From Actinomycetes bacterium (GTDB lineage Bacteria > Actinomycetota > Acidimicrobiia > Acidimicrobiales > Bog-793): 64,000 nt of DNA. The DNA is taken from NCBI GenBank assembly GCA_021829645.1, contig JAKBPI010000007.1, positions 2,073-66,072 on the forward strand, in the 5' to 3' direction. A model generated the notes under the pieces. It worked only from the letters and a program-made list of their open reading frames with translations. It was not told the origin of the DNA and did not search any database. The translations under genes were made by a program, and so were the position numbers. Shown piece after piece: positions 42,066-60,248 of the stretch. The stretch's first letter is position 1; every line of letters begins with the position of its first letter.

Positions 42066-43832
42066 CTAGTCCTGCATCTTGGAGTCGTTCTCAAGCAATA
42101 ACAGTGACTGTTTGGTTTTCTTATCGAGTTGAGATGCCGCCACGGCTTTAAAAAATCTGAGCTTTGTCAAAGGATTGGATGAACCGGACATCTCCTTTAG
42201 TATGGCGCCTACCAATGTCGTACCCATATTAGCGTTACCCAATATAAAAGATTTCTTAGCTGATTTTTTATGCTTTTTTTTACCTATCCCGACAAGCGGA
42301 ATCGATATTTCACTTCTGAGGCGTTTATATGCCTTGGAATGCGATCTTAGATTTTGATCGCTTTTTGCACCCTTTGTAGATACGATCTCTTTGTAAAAAT
42401 TACCTACGGAAAACGGGGAAGATAAAATGTTTACAGTTACAGTCGAGGGGGGAATGACAGACGGCACTCCCCCGGACGGGGTGGTGGTAGCTTTGGGCTG
42501 CTCGCTTTCATCCATTGAATCAGGCTGATACATAACAGCTCTGATTTCATCACTTTTTGGCAATAGGTAGCCGCCGCCAGACATCGAACCAAGACTAGTG
42601 TCCTTACCACCGGAAACACCCCAAATAGCTCCCGATAACGTTCCGGAATTCCTCCTTGTCAGATGAGGCTGTGAAGGGTTTGGAACGTGAAAAACATGAT
42701 CATAGGCATCTTTTGGTGTTAACTTTAGATTATGCAGATGACTCGGCATATGACTGATGGTCGTAGGAGGTAATTGGGTAGTACTAGAAGGAGGACTGAC
42801 AACTGCCTGCCAAGTCGTGGGAACCCAACGGGGAAATGTTATGGTTTTAGTTTTCAATGTTGCTAAATCAGTCGAAGACAATTGTGTTCCCAAGGCTGGC
42901 CCGAGCACACCACTTTTTAGCAATTGATCACCTGTACGCGTGAAATCATCACCAGAATAGCTCACCGTGACTTTGTAGTTAAATGTTTGAGCACTCATGA
43001 GATTTTCCGGAATGGATTCCCAGCCACGCATGAGACCTTGATTGAAGTGTTTATTCTCCTGTGGAGCTATATTTCCGTGGACGTCGGCATTTTTACCTTC
43101 CAACAGAGTGTGCTCTACCAAGTGTCCGCCGTCATAGGTATTTCCCAAATCCTGTCTGTTGAAAACAGATCTCTCCATAGCCCCAAAATGGCCGTATGGA
43201 CCGATAACTGTGTTGTCACGGTCTTTACTATCGACTTTGGAAAGTGAAGTTGGATCGATCGAAGCTGAGACCTCACCGGCACGTTTGTATGTGTTTGTAG
43301 CGTATTCACTAGGTTGTTTAGTCCCCAAGCCGTGAAACTTATATTGCTCAAGCAGAGAGGCGGCTTTAAAGAAAGGTTCGAGGTTGTTGTGCAACACTTC
43401 TATAGGAGATTCAACTTTCTTATCAGGAGTCATCGAATTGATGACCGATTTACGCTGCAAGAGCAGATCCTGTAACGGATCTTTTGTGTCCCTAGTGTCT
43501 TTTGCAGATTGAGGAACTGAGTTGGAGGATACACTAGCGGAATTCCTTTTTCCTGTCGAACTTTTCACGGAAGCTTTTTTAGACGAAGTATTGCGATGTA
43601 AAAAATCTCTTTGCATAAACCACGGAGCGCCGTTTTCATCACCCGACAAAGACGCGGCAATGAGCTTTTGGGTATTTTTATTACCGAGAATACGCTGCAT
43701 ATTGAGAAGATGATGAGCAGGTGAAGCGGGAGTATGGAAAGAATCTACCCCGGAAGATCCGACTTGCCGAGAACTTTGCGATCCATGTCTAGGCAAAGAG
43801 ACAGCAGAATCTGATTTTTTACACTCACCCAC
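42066..43832 (-). CDS. Hypothetical protein with an LQRxxGN-type N-terminal leader and a DNA/RNA non-specific endonuclease (beta-beta-alpha-Me) motif
   Basis: Near the N-terminus it reads HLLNMQRILGNKNTQKLIAAS. Centrally it reads YDGGHLVEHTLLEGKNADVHGNIAPQENKHFNQGLMRGWE. This parallels the Serratia nuclease pattern DRGH...N(I/L)xPQxxxxNQGxWxxxE. Confidence 0.6.
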   Translation of the reverse strand: MGECKKSDSAVSLPRHGSQSSRQVGSSGVDSFHTPASPAHHLLNMQRILGNKNTQKLIAASLSGDENGAPWFMQRDFLHRNTSSKKASVKSSTGKRNSASVSSNSVPQSAKDTRDTKDPLQDLLLQRKSVINSMTPDKKVESPIEVLHNNLEPFFKAASLLEQYKFHGLGTKQPSEYATNTYKRAGEVSASIDPTSLSKVDSKDRDNTVIGPYGHFGAMERSVFNRQDLGNTYDGGHLVEHTLLEGKNADVHGNIAPQENKHFNQGLMRGWESIPENLMSAQTFNYKVTVSYSGDDFTRTGDQLLKSGVLGPALGTQLSSTDLATLKTKTITFPRWVPTTWQAVVSPPSSTTQLPPTTISHMPSHLHNLKLTPKDAYDHVFHVPNPSQPHLTRRNSGTLSGAIWGVSGGKDTSLGSMSGGGYLLPKSDEIRAVMYQPDSMDESEQPKATTTPSGGVPSVIPPSTVTVNILSSPFSVGNFYKEIVSTKGAKSDQNLRSHSKAYKRLRSEISIPLVGIGKKKHKKSAKKSFILGNANMGTTLVGAILKEMSGSSNPLTKLRFFKAVAASQLDKKTKQSLLLLENDSKMQD

Positions 43833-54315: not shown

Positions 54316-56508
54316 TTATTTAGATTGAACTTTTTCTCCGAACTGAACCTCGATAGCTGTCAGTAAAACAGCGACAGAGATATGTGACCTACCGATAAAA
54401 AACCGTGATGCCCTGGAAAGAATACTTTCGGCGACCGGAATCGACGGCGAGTTTTGCAACTCTTCTGCCCTCCTCCCTTGCCACGCATATATGTCGTGTT
54501 CTTGCAGAAGGCGTACGACAGCTTCGACGCACGTATTATGTTCAATTGCCAGATAGTAGGCAAGCGCAGCTTTTTGTCCTGGACTCATTTTTAGGTTTTG
54601 GACATCATCTGAAATATCTTGCTCACTCTCTATGGCATACCATGCTCTAACCCCTATTGCATTGACATCTTCTTTAAGTACGGCAGTTTCGGCGGCTTTA
54701 CTAATACCATTAAGCACATTGTAAAAAGTTGACCCATTTTCGGAAGCTGTCGCAATCGCCTCATCGGCAGCCGTTCCACTCCGAAGAGCCAGCAGATACG
54801 GGGTAAGTATTCCGCTTGTTACGATATCTGCACCGATCAACAACGCCCCCGCCGCCGCCGTCTTTCCTGCAGACAACCAATTCTCAATACTGTCAAGAAA
54901 AGCTGCTGTCGGCGCTGCGATCGCCATATTCATATTTGCCAGCGGTACCACCCATTCGGCTATATCGGTAGGGTCAGAAACTGACGGTGCGGGACTATTG
55001 GCCAAAAACCACGAAGTCATGGAGGCCGTAGCATTTTCCCGCCCGCTGTTATCTCTTACCGCTCCGTACATAAGACCGGTAAGTTCGTTCGGACTAAGAG
55101 GCCCTGGGTATGCGGCATAGTTTGCATATCCCGGCCAGCTCTCTGCCAAAGCCGTATCGCTCATCTGCTCGAATAAGCCGTCTGAACCAAACAAACCCTG
55201 ATCCGCCTGTGACCAAGATTTTATTTCCGACTCACTCAACCCGCTTAAAAAATCAATAACGGCATACGGATGCGGGATCAGGTCGGTAAGCAAGCCTTTT
55301 TCGGCACCGGATACTACACGATAAGAATACAATGCTCCGGCAAGATTGGTTGTCGCATCGTTTGTCTCGTATGCATTGACAACAATTCGATCCAACAAAG
55401 CGCTTTGTATGTCACCGCCGATCATGGCGGCAAGTACAGCCACGCTGGACGCGTCCAGCCCATTTATAAACCCAAGTGCTGCATCAGGATTTGCAGCACA
55501 GGACCGCAAATCGGTAAGCATCGATTTTGTCAAAATAGACTTTGCAAGCGGAGATTTGATCACCGATGTACCGTTCCTAACCACGGTCAAAACTGTGCCG
55601 GGAGAAGGAACTTCACTATAGGCTTGTTTAAGTATGGCGGTATCGTCATTAAAATTCAAAGCTACCTGTTGCCTACATTGCGTGACAAGAGGCGTTGATG
55701 TAATACTTGCGGCGACCTTGGTTCGATATGTCGCTGGTCTCGATCCCGGTTCAGAAACTTCAAAAATAAGGTTATCACCCGGTTCAAGCTCATGTCCCCC
55801 ACTTCCGTTGTCATAACCCCCTGCGAAACCGGATATGACAATATAGTCACTTCCCCAACTTCGCACACGGATCATGATATTACCACTGACAGAAGAAGCG
55901 TTCCAGCCATGGCTGTCAATCATGACGAGTTGGTGTTGAACATCCTTGCTATCAGAAGATTCATTTAAACAATGACCACTAATGGTGATTGACTGAGTTT
56001 TTAATGGTTTAACTATACCTACTGATTCAATACTTGGAGTACATGTCGATGAAGAGTTTGCAGTGGCATGTGAAACATAACAAGACCAGCTATAGGCATT
56101 GTTGATATTACTCACAACAGCCACAGCGTTATCATGAGGATACGTCCACTGACAAGCGGCATTCATATTGGTAGGTTTCGAACCGCATACCCATTTTTTT
56201 GCAGCGTCAGGTGCATTGACGGGACTTAGAAGCGTGGATGACTCACCAAGTGACGAACAATACGCCTGGAGATTCATACCGCCGAGATCCGTCCCTGGTT
56301 TCGGCGGCGGCGAAATAGCTCCTGCTATAGGCGAAACTGTCTGGATACCAACCAATAACAAGACCGTTAACATAATAAAAGAACAGAGAAAACGTATCGA
56401 AATACAATATCTGTGATTATACCCAGAGGGAAGAAGATGATCAGAGGAATCACCTGTCGTTGATTGACCTATTCTGGGTTTGGTTTTCATAGCTACCCAT
56501 TCCCTCAA
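54316..56508 (-). CDS. Large secreted or membrane-anchored hypothetical protein (730 aa)
   Basis: It has an N-terminal signal/anchor (FIMLTVLLLVGIQTVSPIAGA). A Cys-containing domain follows (NLQAYC...WVCG...AACQWTY...AYSWSCY), then a beta-rich middle and an Ala-rich helical C-terminal half. The start may be the internal MKTKPRIG. Confidence 0.6.
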   Translation of the reverse strand: MREWVAMKTKPRIGQSTTGDSSDHLLPSGYNHRYCISIRFLCSFIMLTVLLLVGIQTVSPIAGAISPPPKPGTDLGGMNLQAYCSSLGESSTLLSPVNAPDAAKKWVCGSKPTNMNAACQWTYPHDNAVAVVSNINNAYSWSCYVSHATANSSSTCTPSIESVGIVKPLKTQSITISGHCLNESSDSKDVQHQLVMIDSHGWNASSVSGNIMIRVRSWGSDYIVISGFAGGYDNGSGGHELEPGDNLIFEVSEPGSRPATYRTKVAASITSTPLVTQCRQQVALNFNDDTAILKQAYSEVPSPGTVLTVVRNGTSVIKSPLAKSILTKSMLTDLRSCAANPDAALGFINGLDASSVAVLAAMIGGDIQSALLDRIVVNAYETNDATTNLAGALYSYRVVSGAEKGLLTDLIPHPYAVIDFLSGLSESEIKSWSQADQGLFGSDGLFEQMSDTALAESWPGYANYAAYPGPLSPNELTGLMYGAVRDNSGRENATASMTSWFLANSPAPSVSDPTDIAEWVVPLANMNMAIAAPTAAFLDSIENWLSAGKTAAAGALLIGADIVTSGILTPYLLALRSGTAADEAIATASENGSTFYNVLNGISKAAETAVLKEDVNAIGVRAWYAIESEQDISDDVQNLKMSPGQKAALAYYLAIEHNTCVEAVVRLLQEHDIYAWQGRRAEELQNSPSIPVAESILSRASRFFIGRSHISVAVLLTAIEVQFGEKVQSK

Positions 56509-56559
56509 TTTTGCGAGATTTTGTACACGACATCAATAAGCCAACTTTTGGCAAGCAGA

Positions 56560-57260
56560 TATAAGTCCTATTATATAAGATATCGAGCATGCGTTGTCAA
56601 AAGATCATATAGCCCAACAATCTCGATCCAGTCCGGAGAGGCAAATGTTGGCGCTCGTGTATGTACGGCGTTGATAGTAGCCATAAGAGGGTAACCTCCG
56701 GATGAATGCCGAAGAAGAGCTCGTCGGGCTCACTCAAGACCTTCGACAATCTCCTGTCTGCTCACTGAGCCCTGTCTTGATCGGCGAGTAGAACAAGGTT
56801 GCTTTTTGTATCTGTCCGTGTTGAACGGTGGGCGTTACTCAACAAAATAAGAGCCGGAAGACCTTCTGCATCCGGCTCGTCTGGAAGGAGAGAGACCAAC
56901 ATGCGCGATAAATCAATGGAACGCTCAATAAGGTCAAGACGGGTAAGGTTGTCTCCAGAAGGAGCCGGGTATCCAGTGGTAAATAAAAGACGAATTACTT
57001 CAAGAACACCGTCGAGTCTTTCCGGCAGCTCATCGATATGTCGCCATACTCATCGACGAAGACGCGAAGGCAAAACAACGATGCGCTTTAGCCCCACCTG
57101 CATCAAGGCAATCCTGAGAAATAAGATCCGCAACTACTGCAGAAACCGCTTTATCGTCTACACGACGTCTCTTCTCCCCCTCATCTTTATAGCAGCTCCA
57201 ATAGCCCAACTTTTTACGCTCAACGTCGTGACAATCGGTAGTAACTCCAATAACCAATCG
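56560..57260 (-). pseudogene. Broken ECF-type sigma factor gene of the COG4941 class (sigma factor with a C-terminal helical extension)
   Basis: I translated it by eye. One frame reads ELPERLDGVLEVIRLLFTTGYPAPSGDNLTRLDLIERSIDLSRMLVSLLPDEPDAEGLPALILLSNAHRSTRTDTKSNLVLLADQDRAQ followed by a stop. Another frame then reads GGYPLMATINAVHTRAPTFASPDWIEIVGLYDLL. This matches the family pattern LLFNEGY...LLPDEPE..GLLALMLL...DQDRS.W...YQLQAAIAAVH...DW..I..LYD.L. Confidence 0.5.
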
Positions 57261-57376
57261 GAGTTCGGCTTCTCTGGACGTTGATTTTACCGGCCATTAT
57301 CCATTCCGTCCTCGCCGCATACTCTGTTATAGGTGAACGCGAACAGGGCACACTTGAACCCATTCTCACCAACCTG

Positions 57377-58066
57377 TCAAGCCGAAGAATTCCTTATCGC
57401 CAATAGCTTTGCTTCCGATCGACAGGCCCGACGCACCGCTGCGCGCCGTTGAGAATCTCTGAGGTCATCCTGGAGATTTCGACCACCCTCGCTCTGTTTT
57501 CGAATAAACCCAACGAAGAGAGTGACCGCCTCAGCGATGGAATAACCCGACTCGCAGAGTACTTCGCACCATTCGTGACACAGGTCTGTTTCTTCAAGCA
57601 AGTGAGCGAACGCTTCTTGAATTTGAAACGTCGGCACTTCGATTCTAGCCATATACCAAATTAAGCGTTGCTCTAAAAGATTCACTCCAACGGCAGATAG
57701 ACAGGCCAGGCGCTTAGAAGCAATTGTTGCTGTGGGCGCGGCGCTCATGGCGTTGAAATCACCAACGTAGAAATTCGCGCAGTCCAACATAGGGAGAGGA
57801 GTCAGCGCAAAATAACCGCTTTCCCACAACTTGGAGTTCAGACTTTCATGTTGGCGAACTGCTGCAGCAGTGTTGTGTTATTAAGTACTCCGTTCTTCCT
57901 CGCATGGAAAAGGATGAGAAATCACTATGGCCAGACCGCCTTCTTGAATGCCGGGAATAGTTACGTCGCTAACCACATCGCCAGTGAAGAGCGGACGATA
58001 TTCACTTACCTCTGTGCCGCGAGCAAAATATAGTTCCGAAGGATCTCCAAATGTCTCCAGGCTCAA
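57377..58066 (-). pseudogene. Third gene of the cassette: unknown family, interrupted by tandem in-frame TAA TAA (57878-57883)
   Basis: The TTG start overlaps the upstream stop as TTGA. The N-part reads ...SEYRPLFTGDVVSDVTIPGIQEGGLAIVISHPFPCEEERST**. The same frame continues HNTAAAVRQHESLNSKLWESGYFALTPLPMLDC... to 57377. ORFs 57881..58066 and 57377..57829 are in the same frame. Confidence 0.55.
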
Positions 58067-58704
58067 GTATTTCCCTTTCCGGGTAACCGGAATCCAAACT
58101 CGCCGTCATCTGCCTCAAATACTTCAACTGTCGACTTGTATCGCCTCTTCCAATCAGGGCTCAACCTGTCAAGAACTTCACCCGGTACGACTTGTTCGCC
58201 AGCGAGCTCAATTACATCCACAAGGTGACCCTCCTTTATTAAATCGATCGGTCTTACCGGAGCTTCTGGAACAAGGTGCATCTCCATCCAGACGGCTACA
58301 TCGGCCACAAGGTGATCTTTTTCTAAAATGTCAATTAATCCAAGCAAACGGGCTAGTGCAAGGGAATTCTCACCGGTTGGAGCTTCGCCCGACCGCCACC
58401 TCCTAAGTGCCGGCACGGACACACTAAGCATCGAGGCTATGTCTCTCCATGCAAATCCCTTATGTGACAATCTCTCTAACATCTCCGACACTGAAGCTTT
58501 CGCAATCGATCGACCCCTTGCGTTGATTTGTGCTTCAATGGCTTGATGGTGGAGTTCTCCAAGGTCACGGTCAATAATTTGGGTTACATGACGCAAGTAT
58601 CCTGCATTTTCAACCACATCATCGATAGTTTGAGTACGATCCAATACTTTGCCGACGGAGTCGGCACTTGTTCTCGTCCGATCCGATGAGATCAGGTCAA
58701 CCAT
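58063..58704 (-). CDS. HTH protein with a C-terminal region resembling the Xre/MbcA/ParS antitoxin toxin-binding domain
   Basis: The HTH-like segment is GFAWRDIASMLSVSVPALRRWRSGEAP. The C-terminal WMEMHLVPEAPVRPIDLIKEGHLVDVIELA resembles the W...P..L.G..P.DL...G....V pattern. It overlaps the upstream gene by 8 nt. Confidence 0.65.
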   Translation of the reverse strand: MVDLISSDRTRTSADSVGKVLDRTQTIDDVVENAGYLRHVTQIIDRDLGELHHQAIEAQINARGRSIAKASVSEMLERLSHKGFAWRDIASMLSVSVPALRRWRSGEAPTGENSLALARLLGLIDILEKDHLVADVAVWMEMHLVPEAPVRPIDLIKEGHLVDVIELAGEQVVPGEVLDRLSPDWKRRYKSTVEVFEADDGEFGFRLPGKGNT

Positions 58705-59533
58705 TTCTACCTTCTTTCATAAACTCAGCCTTTAGCTGCTCCGTAGTCAAGATATCGAACAGAGTCCGAATCGGGCGTCGAAGTTCGTCGCATGTCGAAA
58801 CCACAACGGCAGGATCAAACTCAGGAATATCCGATGGCGTCCAGAAGCAGTCAAAATCCCACATAAACACAGGCCTCATAGGCGGAGGTGAAGTTCGCTT
58901 GGGCTCACCGTCAGGGTTCACCACATAACTAGGGCGAGGACCGTATCTGAAAACAAGATATCGGTCCTCGCCGACATCGAATTGCACGGCGCCGTCCCAG
59001 GCAGAACACGTATAACCCGAATTAGCCATAGAAGTCAGCTTTGGAGCAACTAAAGAGGGGTCCAGCCATTTGGCCCAACTCGGAATGTCGCTTACTCTCG
59101 TTACTTCAGGAACTCGAATTTCATCTATATAGCGCATACCGATCCGTGAAATCCCATCCGGTCTGACAACTTGCGTCGTGGCGTCAACTGCGGCTTCAAT
59201 GATCTCCCTAAATTGAGGGTAATGATGGTACTCGGTTGCTTCCACCGTCACGCTGTTGCCTGTCAAGGCAATAGCCATCGTTCTGTCTCGAATCGTAAAC
59301 TTAGGCACTGTCGTCGTCGGCTGTGACTCAAGAAATGGACCAGAAGCATTGAACGAGACGACCTGCGACTGGACCTTCCGAGTCTCGATCACCCAGTCTT
59401 GACCAAGGACTTCACGGAAAGCCCTCCATAAATTCACTGGATAGGAACTACTTTTCGTTCCATCGAGAAACCGTATCTCCACGGCAACCAGGGCCAACGG
59501 AGCGTTCGGAAGAACTTCGTGGGAATCGGACAA
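58697..59533 (-). CDS. TIGR04255-like uncharacterised protein
   Basis: I moved the start to the TTG at 59531-59533, 6 nt after a perfect AGGAGG. The N-terminus is then MSDSHEVLPNAPLALVAVEIRF, and ISRIGMRYIDEI and FMWDFDCF follow later. This fits my recollection of the TIGR04255 family. The longer ORF-track N-terminus runs through an AT-rich promoter-like sequence. Confidence 0.65.
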   Translation of the reverse strand: MSDSHEVLPNAPLALVAVEIRFLDGTKSSSYPVNLWRAFREVLGQDWVIETRKVQSQVVSFNASGPFLESQPTTTVPKFTIRDRTMAIALTGNSVTVEATEYHHYPQFREIIEAAVDATTQVVRPDGISRIGMRYIDEIRVPEVTRVSDIPSWAKWLDPSLVAPKLTSMANSGYTCSAWDGAVQFDVGEDRYLVFRYGPRPSYVVNPDGEPKRTSPPPMRPVFMWDFDCFWTPSDIPEFDPAVVVSTCDELRRPIRTLFDILTTEQLKAEFMKEGRNG

Positions 59534-59849
59534 ATGCGACCTCCTAATAATGATACTAATACTAAAATCAATACTGTAAGTAATATTATAAGTCTTTATT
59601 GTAATTGAGATTGCGCCGAAAGTCCGGCTGGCACATACCCGAAGAGTCTCTAATGAAATAAGGTGCACACAGCAGATCGAAGAAACGACCCAAGCCAAGG
59701 ACCATATGTTCGCAGCCCCGTTGGTGAAATCGAACCACGTTCAAGAACCCGAAAGGGGACATGGCGGAGGAAGCGGAGCGACGTCAGGCCCAATAAACGA
59801 AAATAACCGAAAACTCACAAATCAGGTTTACCTGCCAGAATGTCAGCAC

Positions 59850-60171: not shown

Positions 60172-60248
60172 TGGTGGGCACTAGAGGACTCGAACCTCCG
60201 ACCTCAGCCGTGTGAAGGCTGCGCTCTAACCAACTGAGCTAAATGCCC
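60172..60248 (-). tRNA. tRNA-Val (anticodon CAC), CCA encoded
   Basis: I folded the reverse complement by hand: GGGCATT TA GCTC AGTTGGTTA GAGC G CAGCC TTCACAC GGCTG AGGTC GGAGG TTCGAGT CCTCT AGTGCCC A CCA. All four stems pair, and the anticodon loop TT-CAC-AC is in register. Confidence 0.95.

Follow-up and report, generated by a model that had tools for sequence, protein, structure and literature searches.

What is encoded by a compact group of three minus-strand genes found close to a tRNA-Val gene in a stretch of Actinomycetes bacterium DNA, and why is the last of the three broken? The stretch (assembly GCA_021829645.1, contig JAKBPI010000007.1) is 64,000 nt long and is referred to, as a whole, as the window. 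Analysis of the open reading frames (ORFs) of this region agrees with a preliminary description, in which three overlapping ORFs had been placed, at the same positions, between 59533 and 57377. The three genes, collectively called the cassette, are the following.

59533-58697, minus strand: g1, TTG start, 278 amino acids (aa), intact; TIGR04255-family protein, always the first gene of the module.
58704-58063, minus strand: g2, ATG start, 213 aa, intact; helix-turn-helix (HTH) protein, candidate repressor and antitoxin.
58066-57377, minus strand: g3 pseudogene, TTG start, intact form of 230 aa; candidate toxic effector.

The overlap between g1 and g2 is 8 nt long (ATGGTTGA), that between g2 and g3 4 nt long (TTGA). 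To judge by the sequence, this layout is the one expected of type II toxin-antitoxin pairs, with adjacent co-directional genes, a stop/start overlap and a putative DNA-binding partner 5' of the candidate toxin. As described below, the cassette is a conserved, horizontally mobile three-gene operon, and the window holds an inactivated copy of it, in which g1 and g2 persist as an orphan pair. We propose, with a probability of about 0.6, that it is a toxin-antitoxin-like conflict module, serving abortive-infection defence and/or the maintenance of mobile elements. According to this proposal, g3 would be an effector able to inhibit or arrest growth; g2 would both repress the operon, by binding an operator via its HTH, and neutralise g3 via its conserved C-terminal domain; g1 would be an obligatory third partner, acting as a sensor or trigger or else assisting g2. 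Release of g3 would follow upon infection by a phage, or upon loss of the operon or of the element carrying it. In the lineage of the window the costly effector g3 would have been lost, with g1 and g2 remaining.

The conservation of the cassette was evaluated by scanning, for g3, one genome per GTDB species. Thirty g3 loci were identified, mostly in metagenome-assembled genomes (MAGs) of Acidimicrobiia and Thermoleophilia, plus Ferrimicrobium acidiphilum and one Betaproteobacteria MAG. The order g1-g2-g3 and the tight packing are found, by tblastn, in about 26 of the 30 loci, and exceptions are few among those with enough upstream sequence; three loci hold only a g3 remnant. Overlaps of 8 or 4 nt are widely conserved among these loci. 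A metagenome scan based on g1 produced more than 500 relatives, of which the best 80 were examined. Within this set, retrieved via g1 alone, g2 comes directly after g1 in 64 of the 65 loci with room for it, and g3 then follows wherever there is room. The full triad is also present in all of the IMG/VR viral contigs with a g3 relative (6/6), in the genomes of Microbacterium maritypicum, Streptomyces cocklensis and Pauljensenia, and on a plasmid of Rhodococcus pyridinivorans. The three families therefore co-occur, in the same order, in GTDB, metagenome, viral and plasmid loci outside the source genome, a point on which the preliminary description had made its proposal depend.

Proteins near-identical to those of the window organism are labelled 'MAG: Firmicutes/Bacillota bacterium' at NCBI, and the closest relatives of the cassette, at about 50% identity, are found in Actinomycetota such as Ferrimicrobium acidiphilum. 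As far as the NCBI labels go, this suggests that the cassette moved horizontally between phyla, perhaps between organisms living in similar habitats.

Distant TIGR04255 genes were found on plasmids of Sinorhizobium, Rhizobium, Sphingomonas, Chroococcidiopsis, Gloeocapsa, Acinetobacter baumannii, Kocuria and Paenarthrobacter. In 8 of the 8 distant loci examined, the next ORF encodes about 200 aa, including an HTH similar to that of g2, and is followed by a gene for a third protein of 254-326 aa. These third proteins constitute one family, characterized by an invariant Cys within an SQTCD motif and by a QGD before it. When their profile is compared to that of g3, the two match with a probability of 57.6% (E 1e-4) over 122 columns, HPCSMR being aligned with QTCDI. 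As the gene order is identical, besides the profile match, remote homology between g3 and the distant third proteins is judged likely. None of the distant plasmid-version proteins matches Pfam, and only one matches PADLOC: the third protein of L135 hits a Type I specificity subunit (E 0.0029), a weak match which was read as chance. (Labels L001, L007, L008, L043-L048, L130/L131 and L135 designate compared genomes, assemblies or loci.) TIGR04255 looks like the marker of a three-gene module distributed across at least four phyla.

A word-indexed search found only 14 relatives of g3; the full-length ones range between 219 and 296 aa, all but one being of 219-244 aa, and share a conserved HPC motif, which sits exactly where the window sequence fails. 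An exhaustive profile search over 1.84 billion representative proteins yielded 741 relatives, nearly all of 215-260 aa; for 558 of these, E<=1e-10. The 230 aa of the intact form correct an initial estimate of about 210 aa. By sequence searches, g3 belongs to no family in Pfam, NCBIfam, PADLOC, PDB or PHROGs, and none of 93 members of the g3 family matches PemK_toxin (PF02452) at E<=0.1.

The structure of g3 was predicted by using AlphaFold on a 93-sequence alignment, with a mean predicted local distance difference test (pLDDT) of 95.7 and a predicted TM score (pTM) of 0.90; an earlier model, obtained from 12 sequences (pLDDT 64.6), was left out of the fold search. The model combines a beta-rich N-terminal domain, ending near residue 125, with a C-terminal part of about 100 aa made up of four to five helices. 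When it was compared to the PDB by using Foldseek, 49 of the top 50 matches were MazF/PemK-type toxins (MazF, MoxT and similar) and the remaining one was CcdB, all with probability 1.0, a target-normalised TM score of 0.60-0.79, or 0.68-0.79 for the hits to MazF, and about 120 aligned columns. The best PDB match is 4MZM (E 4.5e-5), and phage 'PemK-like' proteins were matched in BFVD. The N-terminal half of g3 is therefore predicted to adopt the SH3-like barrel fold of MazF, PemK and CcdB, in agreement with the PemK/MazF-like N-terminus and helical C-terminal half suspected from the sequence.

Residues D30, H51-P52-C53, R56, W82, R120, R135, R142, E160, W167 and R213 are invariant in the g3 family, a set which may differ from the MazF catalytic one. 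In an hhalign comparison to an approximate sequence of B. subtilis MazF, which was not significant, residues other than Arg and Thr are found in g3 at the catalytic Arg and Thr/Ser sites. Since g3 has no MazF/PemK sequence match and instead conserves D30, H51-P52-C53, R56, R120, R142 and E160, its chemistry may differ from the RNA cleavage of classical MazF.

The HTH nature of g2, as previously assigned, was confirmed by a match to HTH_3 (PF01381) at aa 78-125, the score of 24.0 bits exceeding by a small margin the gathering cut-off of 23, and by the homologues from related loci, all 23 of which match HTH models (HTH_23 in 23/23, HTH_3 in 19/23). In an alignment of the homologues, a variable N-terminus precedes the Xre-type HTH (about aa 75-125), which is followed by some 90 aa of a conserved C-terminal domain. 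The latter had been likened to the toxin-binding domain of Xre/MbcA/ParS antitoxins. This likeness is unsupported, since Xre_MbcA_ParS_C (PF09722, formerly DUF2384) matches none of the 23 homologues at E<=1, and a search of the PDB with the g2 profile retrieved no MbcA, ParS or Xre-RES chain at E<=10. In a representative protein of 479 aa, P0143, residues 229-436 look like an entire g3 domain, and seem fused to a g2-like HTH region at the N-terminus ('...VGVSPTAVRKWRRGGALTPESRARLARLVAF...'). The fusion may be genuine, in which case it would support a physical interaction between g2 and g3, or may stem from a frameshifted gene call.

The assignment of g1 to TIGR04255 also stands: the NCBIfam model matches, over positions 2-251 of 252, with 117.6 bits (E 7.9e-34; cut-off 30 bits). 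The protein has no match in Pfam (E<=1), PADLOC, PHROGs or the PDB, nor does a broader g1 profile find any. In the PDB, the g1 and g2 profiles retrieved nothing beyond generic HTHs at E ~1 and a designed repeat protein, 9hnh, which was regarded as noise; a test for internal duplication of g1 was negative. Residues conserved in the g1 family are E19/R21, R82/R84, E98/T100/Y102, R130/G132/R134/Y135, R196 and D226/D228 (window g1 numbering); most of them are charged and spaced i/i+2 on strand-like sequence, and they include an invariant D-x-D. Such a spacing is suggestive of a pocket or tunnel lined by strands, in which a charged ligand would bind. A link to triphosphate-tunnel (CYTH) enzymes, considered because charged residues alternate on the predicted strands, is not claimed, as the Pfam search of g1 gave no family and no support for it.

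In order to place the cassette among known systems, its features were compared to those of several toxin-antitoxin and defence families. With MazEF, PemIK (Kid-Kis) and CcdAB it shares the SH3-like barrel predicted for the N-terminal half of g3, a DNA-binding gene located upstream with a 4-nt overlap, carriage by mobile elements and decay of the toxin gene. Unlike MazF and CcdB, g3 has no PF02452 or CcdB sequence match, is twice as long, carries a helical domain of about 100 aa and features an invariant HPC of its own; its partner is a 213-aa Xre-type HTH protein, rather than MazE/AbrB or CcdA, and an obligatory TIGR04255 gene precedes the g2-g3 pair. An Xre-type HTH protein with a further conserved domain, encoded directly 5' of a putative toxin, also recalls Xre-RES/ParST/MbcTA, HigBA and HipBA, from which the cassette differs in that the C-terminal domain of g2 matches neither Xre_MbcA_ParS_C nor any solved antitoxin, and g3 is not a RES, RelE-like or HipA protein. 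Three co-transcribed genes, one of them neither classical toxin nor antitoxin, are found in TAC (with its SecB-like chaperone), CmdTAC and HipBST, an arrangement resembled by that of the cassette. The third component of CmdTAC is reported to be tied to phage sensing (PMC11618068). The cassette differs from TAC in that g1 is unrelated by sequence to SecB-type chaperones (its only match is TIGR04255, with no Pfam family at E<=1) and is the first gene rather than the last. In type II Gabija, GajB is accompanied by the MazF-like GajC, a presumed anti-phage effector in which the fold is elaborated by helices; the partner of GajC is a UvrD helicase, and the helical insert is placed inside the MazF domain (PMC13069673). 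The likeness lies in a MazF-like fold as presumed effector, for which type II Gabija provides a published precedent in defence; the cassette differs in its partners, TIGR04255 and an HTH protein, and in the C-terminal position of the helical domain of g3. PADLOC-DB 2.0.0 has no match to g1, g2 or g3, and a full-text search found no paper mentioning TIGR04255 or CHP04255, in line with the view, already expressed in the preliminary description, that no system of this composition had been described. What sets the cassette apart, within the known kind of toxin-antitoxin or abortive-infection systems with a MazF-fold toxin, is a candidate effector family not recognised before, the uncharacterised TIGR04255 protein as an obligatory partner, and a putative antitoxin domain not previously known.

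Several points weigh against the proposed function. No PemK/MazF or CcdB sequence model matches g3, and hhalign comparisons of g3 to MazF sequences, for which approximate sequences were used, are not significant. No match to a known toxin-binding domain was obtained for the C-terminal domain of g2, and none of the relatives detected for g1 has an established function or structure, which makes the role assigned to g1 a guess. Ordinary housekeeping genes are found in about half of the neighbourhoods sampled, and the neighbours of the cassette in the window are not defence genes. Finally, some of the split genes found in nanopore-based MAGs may be sequencing errors.

In L007, genes for SIR2, Mrr, an MmeI-like methyltransferase and a PLD-SNF2 helicase adjoin the cassette. 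In Microbacterium maritypicum, a serine recombinase gene is located upstream, and a complete type I restriction-modification (R-M) system, hsdM-hsdS-hsdR, begins 4 nt before the g3 stop codon (L130/L131, 10711-16849). Since the hsdM start overlaps the g3 stop, by 4 nt, cassette and type I R-M genes may be co-transcribed; ORFs of 224 and 962 aa are found after the latter. The cassette lies between the early and the structural genes of a prophage in Streptomyces cocklensis, and follows a MobF relaxase gene on Rhodococcus plasmids. Among the largest neighbours in nine further metagenome loci are GajA (E 8e-144), a type I restriction subunit (E 2e-101) and a subtilase resembling IetS (E 6e-33); the others are housekeeping genes. 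The expected association with defence genes and mobile elements is thus often observed, as in L007, Microbacterium, the Streptomyces prophage and the loci with GajA or R-M neighbours.

The same data could be explained by plain addiction of plasmids or prophages, exerted by post-segregational killing without any role in phage defence, g1 acting as an accessory regulator or as a chaperone of g2, as SecB does in TAC. The position beside a relaxase gene on mobilisable Rhodococcus plasmids, the location inside a prophage and near recombinases, and the antitoxin-then-toxin order with a 4-nt overlap all favour this explanation. However, known defence genes are frequent direct neighbours, including an abutting type I R-M system, and g1 bears no SecB or chaperone signature. 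We consider pure addiction a possibility of rather low probability, keeping in mind that addiction and defence are not mutually exclusive.

The fate of the three genes across loci sets g3 apart from its partners. In the 50 metagenome loci with room for it, g3 is intact in 34, split or truncated in 14 and absent in 2, for a total of 16 disrupted cases (32%). Judged in the same way, damage to g2 is seen in 2 of 65 loci (3%) and damage to g1 in at most 6 of 71; the difference between g3 and g2 is significant by Fisher test (p = 3e-5). When loci are collapsed at 95% g1 identity, a disrupted g3 is found in 10 of 34 lineages, two of which hold intact and broken alleles together. Lesions may differ within one lineage, where a deletion, a shared breakpoint, a 7-nt insertion and a rearrangement were observed. 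On the Rhodococcus plasmid pRaL13e, g3 is cut after about 69 codons by an ISL3 element. The window is a further instance of this selective decay, which would be expected if g3 were the costly or toxic partner, and g1-g2 harmless or useful alone. A rare counter-example is provided by an Acidimicrobiales MAG (L008, 6703-8780), in which g1 is degraded into pieces of 109 and 68 aa; g3 is called there as a 296-aa protein, with a C-terminal extension of about 70 aa.

Selective decay is also relevant to the idea that g1 is the real effector or enzyme and g3 a MazF-fold adaptor, inhibitor or sensor, whose loss switches the system off. MazF and CcdB folds are also known to act as binding modules, and g1 is the most conserved and the most constant partner across phyla, with invariant charged residues E98, R130, R134, R196 and D226-x-D228. 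If g3 restrained a toxic g1, however, its loss should entail that of g1. Instead, almost every locus with a disrupted g3 retains an undamaged g1, and the g1 of the window does not differ from that of strains whose g3 is intact. As g3 is lost while g1 persists, a role of g3 as antitoxin for a toxic g1 is disfavoured; moreover, the sole recognisable toxin fold is in g3. An effector role for g1 is therefore regarded as unlikely. Even less so do we favour an ordinary regulated function, such as that of a metabolic or stress-response operon controlled by an Xre-type regulator: the annotation of all three proteins goes no further than 'hypothetical', and several neighbourhoods are of the housekeeping type, but the distribution is patchy and crosses phyla, the cassette travels on plasmids, in prophages and in viral contigs, g3 has a predicted toxin fold, and one gene alone decays recurrently.

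The state of g3 in the window was analyzed by looking up the exact g2 protein, which was found in seven places. L043, L046, L047 and L048 contain a broken allele, 100% identical to the window. L044 and L045 are 99.6% identical to the window and encode an uninterrupted g3 of 230 aa, which reads ...HPCSMRGKNGVLNNTTLLAAVRQH..., the stretch being also given as ...ISHPCSMRGKNGVLNNTTLLAAVRQHE.... Compared to these intact alleles, the g3 of the window carries three separate 1-nt deletions and two substitutions within 46 nt, as listed here.

57865-57910, minus strand: lesion cluster, from DNA alignment and pairwise comparison with the intact alleles.
Before 57909, minus strand: g3 deletion 1, G lost inside the codon of the invariant Cys53 (HPC motif), with an adjacent C>T.
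Before 57900, minus strand: g3 deletion 2, C lost, with an adjacent G>A.
Before 57865, minus strand: g3 deletion 3, G lost.

Because the net loss is 3 nt, the N- and C-terminal parts of g3 share one frame, which extends to 57377. The out-of-frame stretch between the deletions contains the two consecutive stop codons TAA TAA, at 57883-57878. KNGVLNNTTLL is the original frame between the second and the third deletion; the alternative frame which had been noticed to run across the stops is thus the ancestral one, as seen in L044 and L045. An early repair of g3, SMRGRTEYLITQH, which assumed one alternative frame and two deletions, was ruled out by the intact alleles, which read SMRGKNGVLNNTTLL and require three. 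L001, from another sequencing run, has the first two deletions and lacks the third; as two of the three deletions are present, it represents an intermediate state. Outside the lesion cluster, the alleles are nearly the same: there are 0 differences in g1 and g2 between the window and the strains with an intact g3, the rest of g3 has only 1-2 differing sites, and the sole variation in the leader concerns how many times TTAGTA is repeated (see below). The third deletion turns a quasi-palindrome of the intact allele, ACTGCTGGCAGCAGT, into a perfect 14-nt palindrome, ACTGCTGCAGCAGT, at 57858-57871, and carries the signature of a template-switch mutation (quasi-palindrome correction).

An artefact of sequencing or assembly, in which TAA TAA and the frame changes would be spurious and g3 actually intact, is very unlikely: single-base deletions are a common type of error, and several of the matching assemblies may share overlapping read sets, but the identical broken allele is present in four other assemblies, L043, L046, L047 and L048 (from NCBI, JGI and Logan), the distinct intermediate allele with two of the three deletions comes from another run, intact alleles were assembled by the same kinds of pipeline, and two substitutions accompany the deletions. 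The g3 of the window is a true, recent pseudogene in a polymorphic population, and its inactivation, with the involvement of indels, had been correctly anticipated.

The surroundings of the cassette in the window were analyzed for signals of expression and mobility. Two further features are relevant.

59534-59610, minus strand: operon leader, AT-rich, from the sequence and an alignment of six alleles.
60172-60248, minus strand: tRNA-Val gene (anticodon CAC), identified by ARAGORN and by Rfam RF00005 (69.9 bits).

The promoter-like, AT-rich stretch and the AGGAGG which had been noted upstream of g1 are indeed present. The leader includes a perfect TATAAT at 59590-59585, and the Shine-Dalgarno sequence AGGAGG at 59545-59540 is 6 nt 5' of the g1 start. 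A promoter in this leader is graded as plausible, rather than demonstrated, because a simple consensus scan found no sigma-70 match upstream of g1. Between TATAAT and Shine-Dalgarno, at 59554-59565, TTAGTA is repeated in tandem (TTAGTA-TTAGTA). Two copies are found in the window, L045, L046 and L048, and one in L044 and L001, the copy number being independent of whether g3 is intact; the tandem could be part of an operator or result from simple slippage. A search for inverted-repeat operators in the leader found nothing convincing.

The tRNA-Val gene lies about 640 nt upstream of the cassette, with its 3' end towards it, and the cassette had been assigned to a tRNA-linked island. Such an island was not demonstrated, since neither of its expected marks was found: there is no integrase among the ORFs scanned at 42-61 kb of the window, and no direct repeat of the tRNA-Val 3' end, as an att site would provide, in 40000-60300. 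The GC fraction is 0.38-0.44 at about 44-54 kb and 0.46-0.50 elsewhere, with no definable boundary; few long ORFs occur at 46.4-48.9 kb and 50.9-52.6 kb. The 870 nt separating g3 from the next gene (56509-57376) contain no notable ORF and differ from L044 at 7 sites. Foreign DNA, or DNA that has also decayed, may make up both the 44-54 kb region and this interval. Next to the cassette, on its downstream side, an ORF of 730 aa (54316-56508) encodes a hydrophobic N-terminal stretch and has no Pfam match; another ORF, of 588 aa (42066-43832), contains an Endonuclea_NS_2 domain (E 4e-9). From these features, the products of both look like secreted or surface proteins.

A more detailed version of the proposed conflict module can be offered tentatively, and at lower probability than its general form. 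In this version, TIGR04255 would sense infection, the HTH protein would be repressor and antitoxin at once, and the MazF-fold effector would use its invariant Cys in a chemistry unlike the metal-free RNA cleavage of classical MazF, the whole constituting a three-component immune or toxin-antitoxin system of Actinomycetota, Cyanobacteriota and Alpha-, Beta- and Gammaproteobacteria, including Acinetobacter baumannii, as well as of phages and plasmids.

TIGR04255 is a curated family, used by NCBI to name proteins across bacterial genomes, and is now tied to a fixed module with an HTH protein and a protein of predicted MazF fold. The dead copy found in the window led to intact alleles, both in the same population and in the cultured strains Ferrimicrobium acidiphilum, Microbacterium maritypicum, Rhodococcus pyridinivorans and Streptomyces cocklensis, and the natural 'knock-out series' formed by the decayed loci suggests that the third gene is the costly one. 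If the proposed function is true, the cassette would represent a new family of toxin-antitoxin or anti-phage systems, with a novel partner protein and perhaps an activity not seen before on the MazF scaffold, and would provide a functional name for several hundred to a few thousand genes now called 'hypothetical'.

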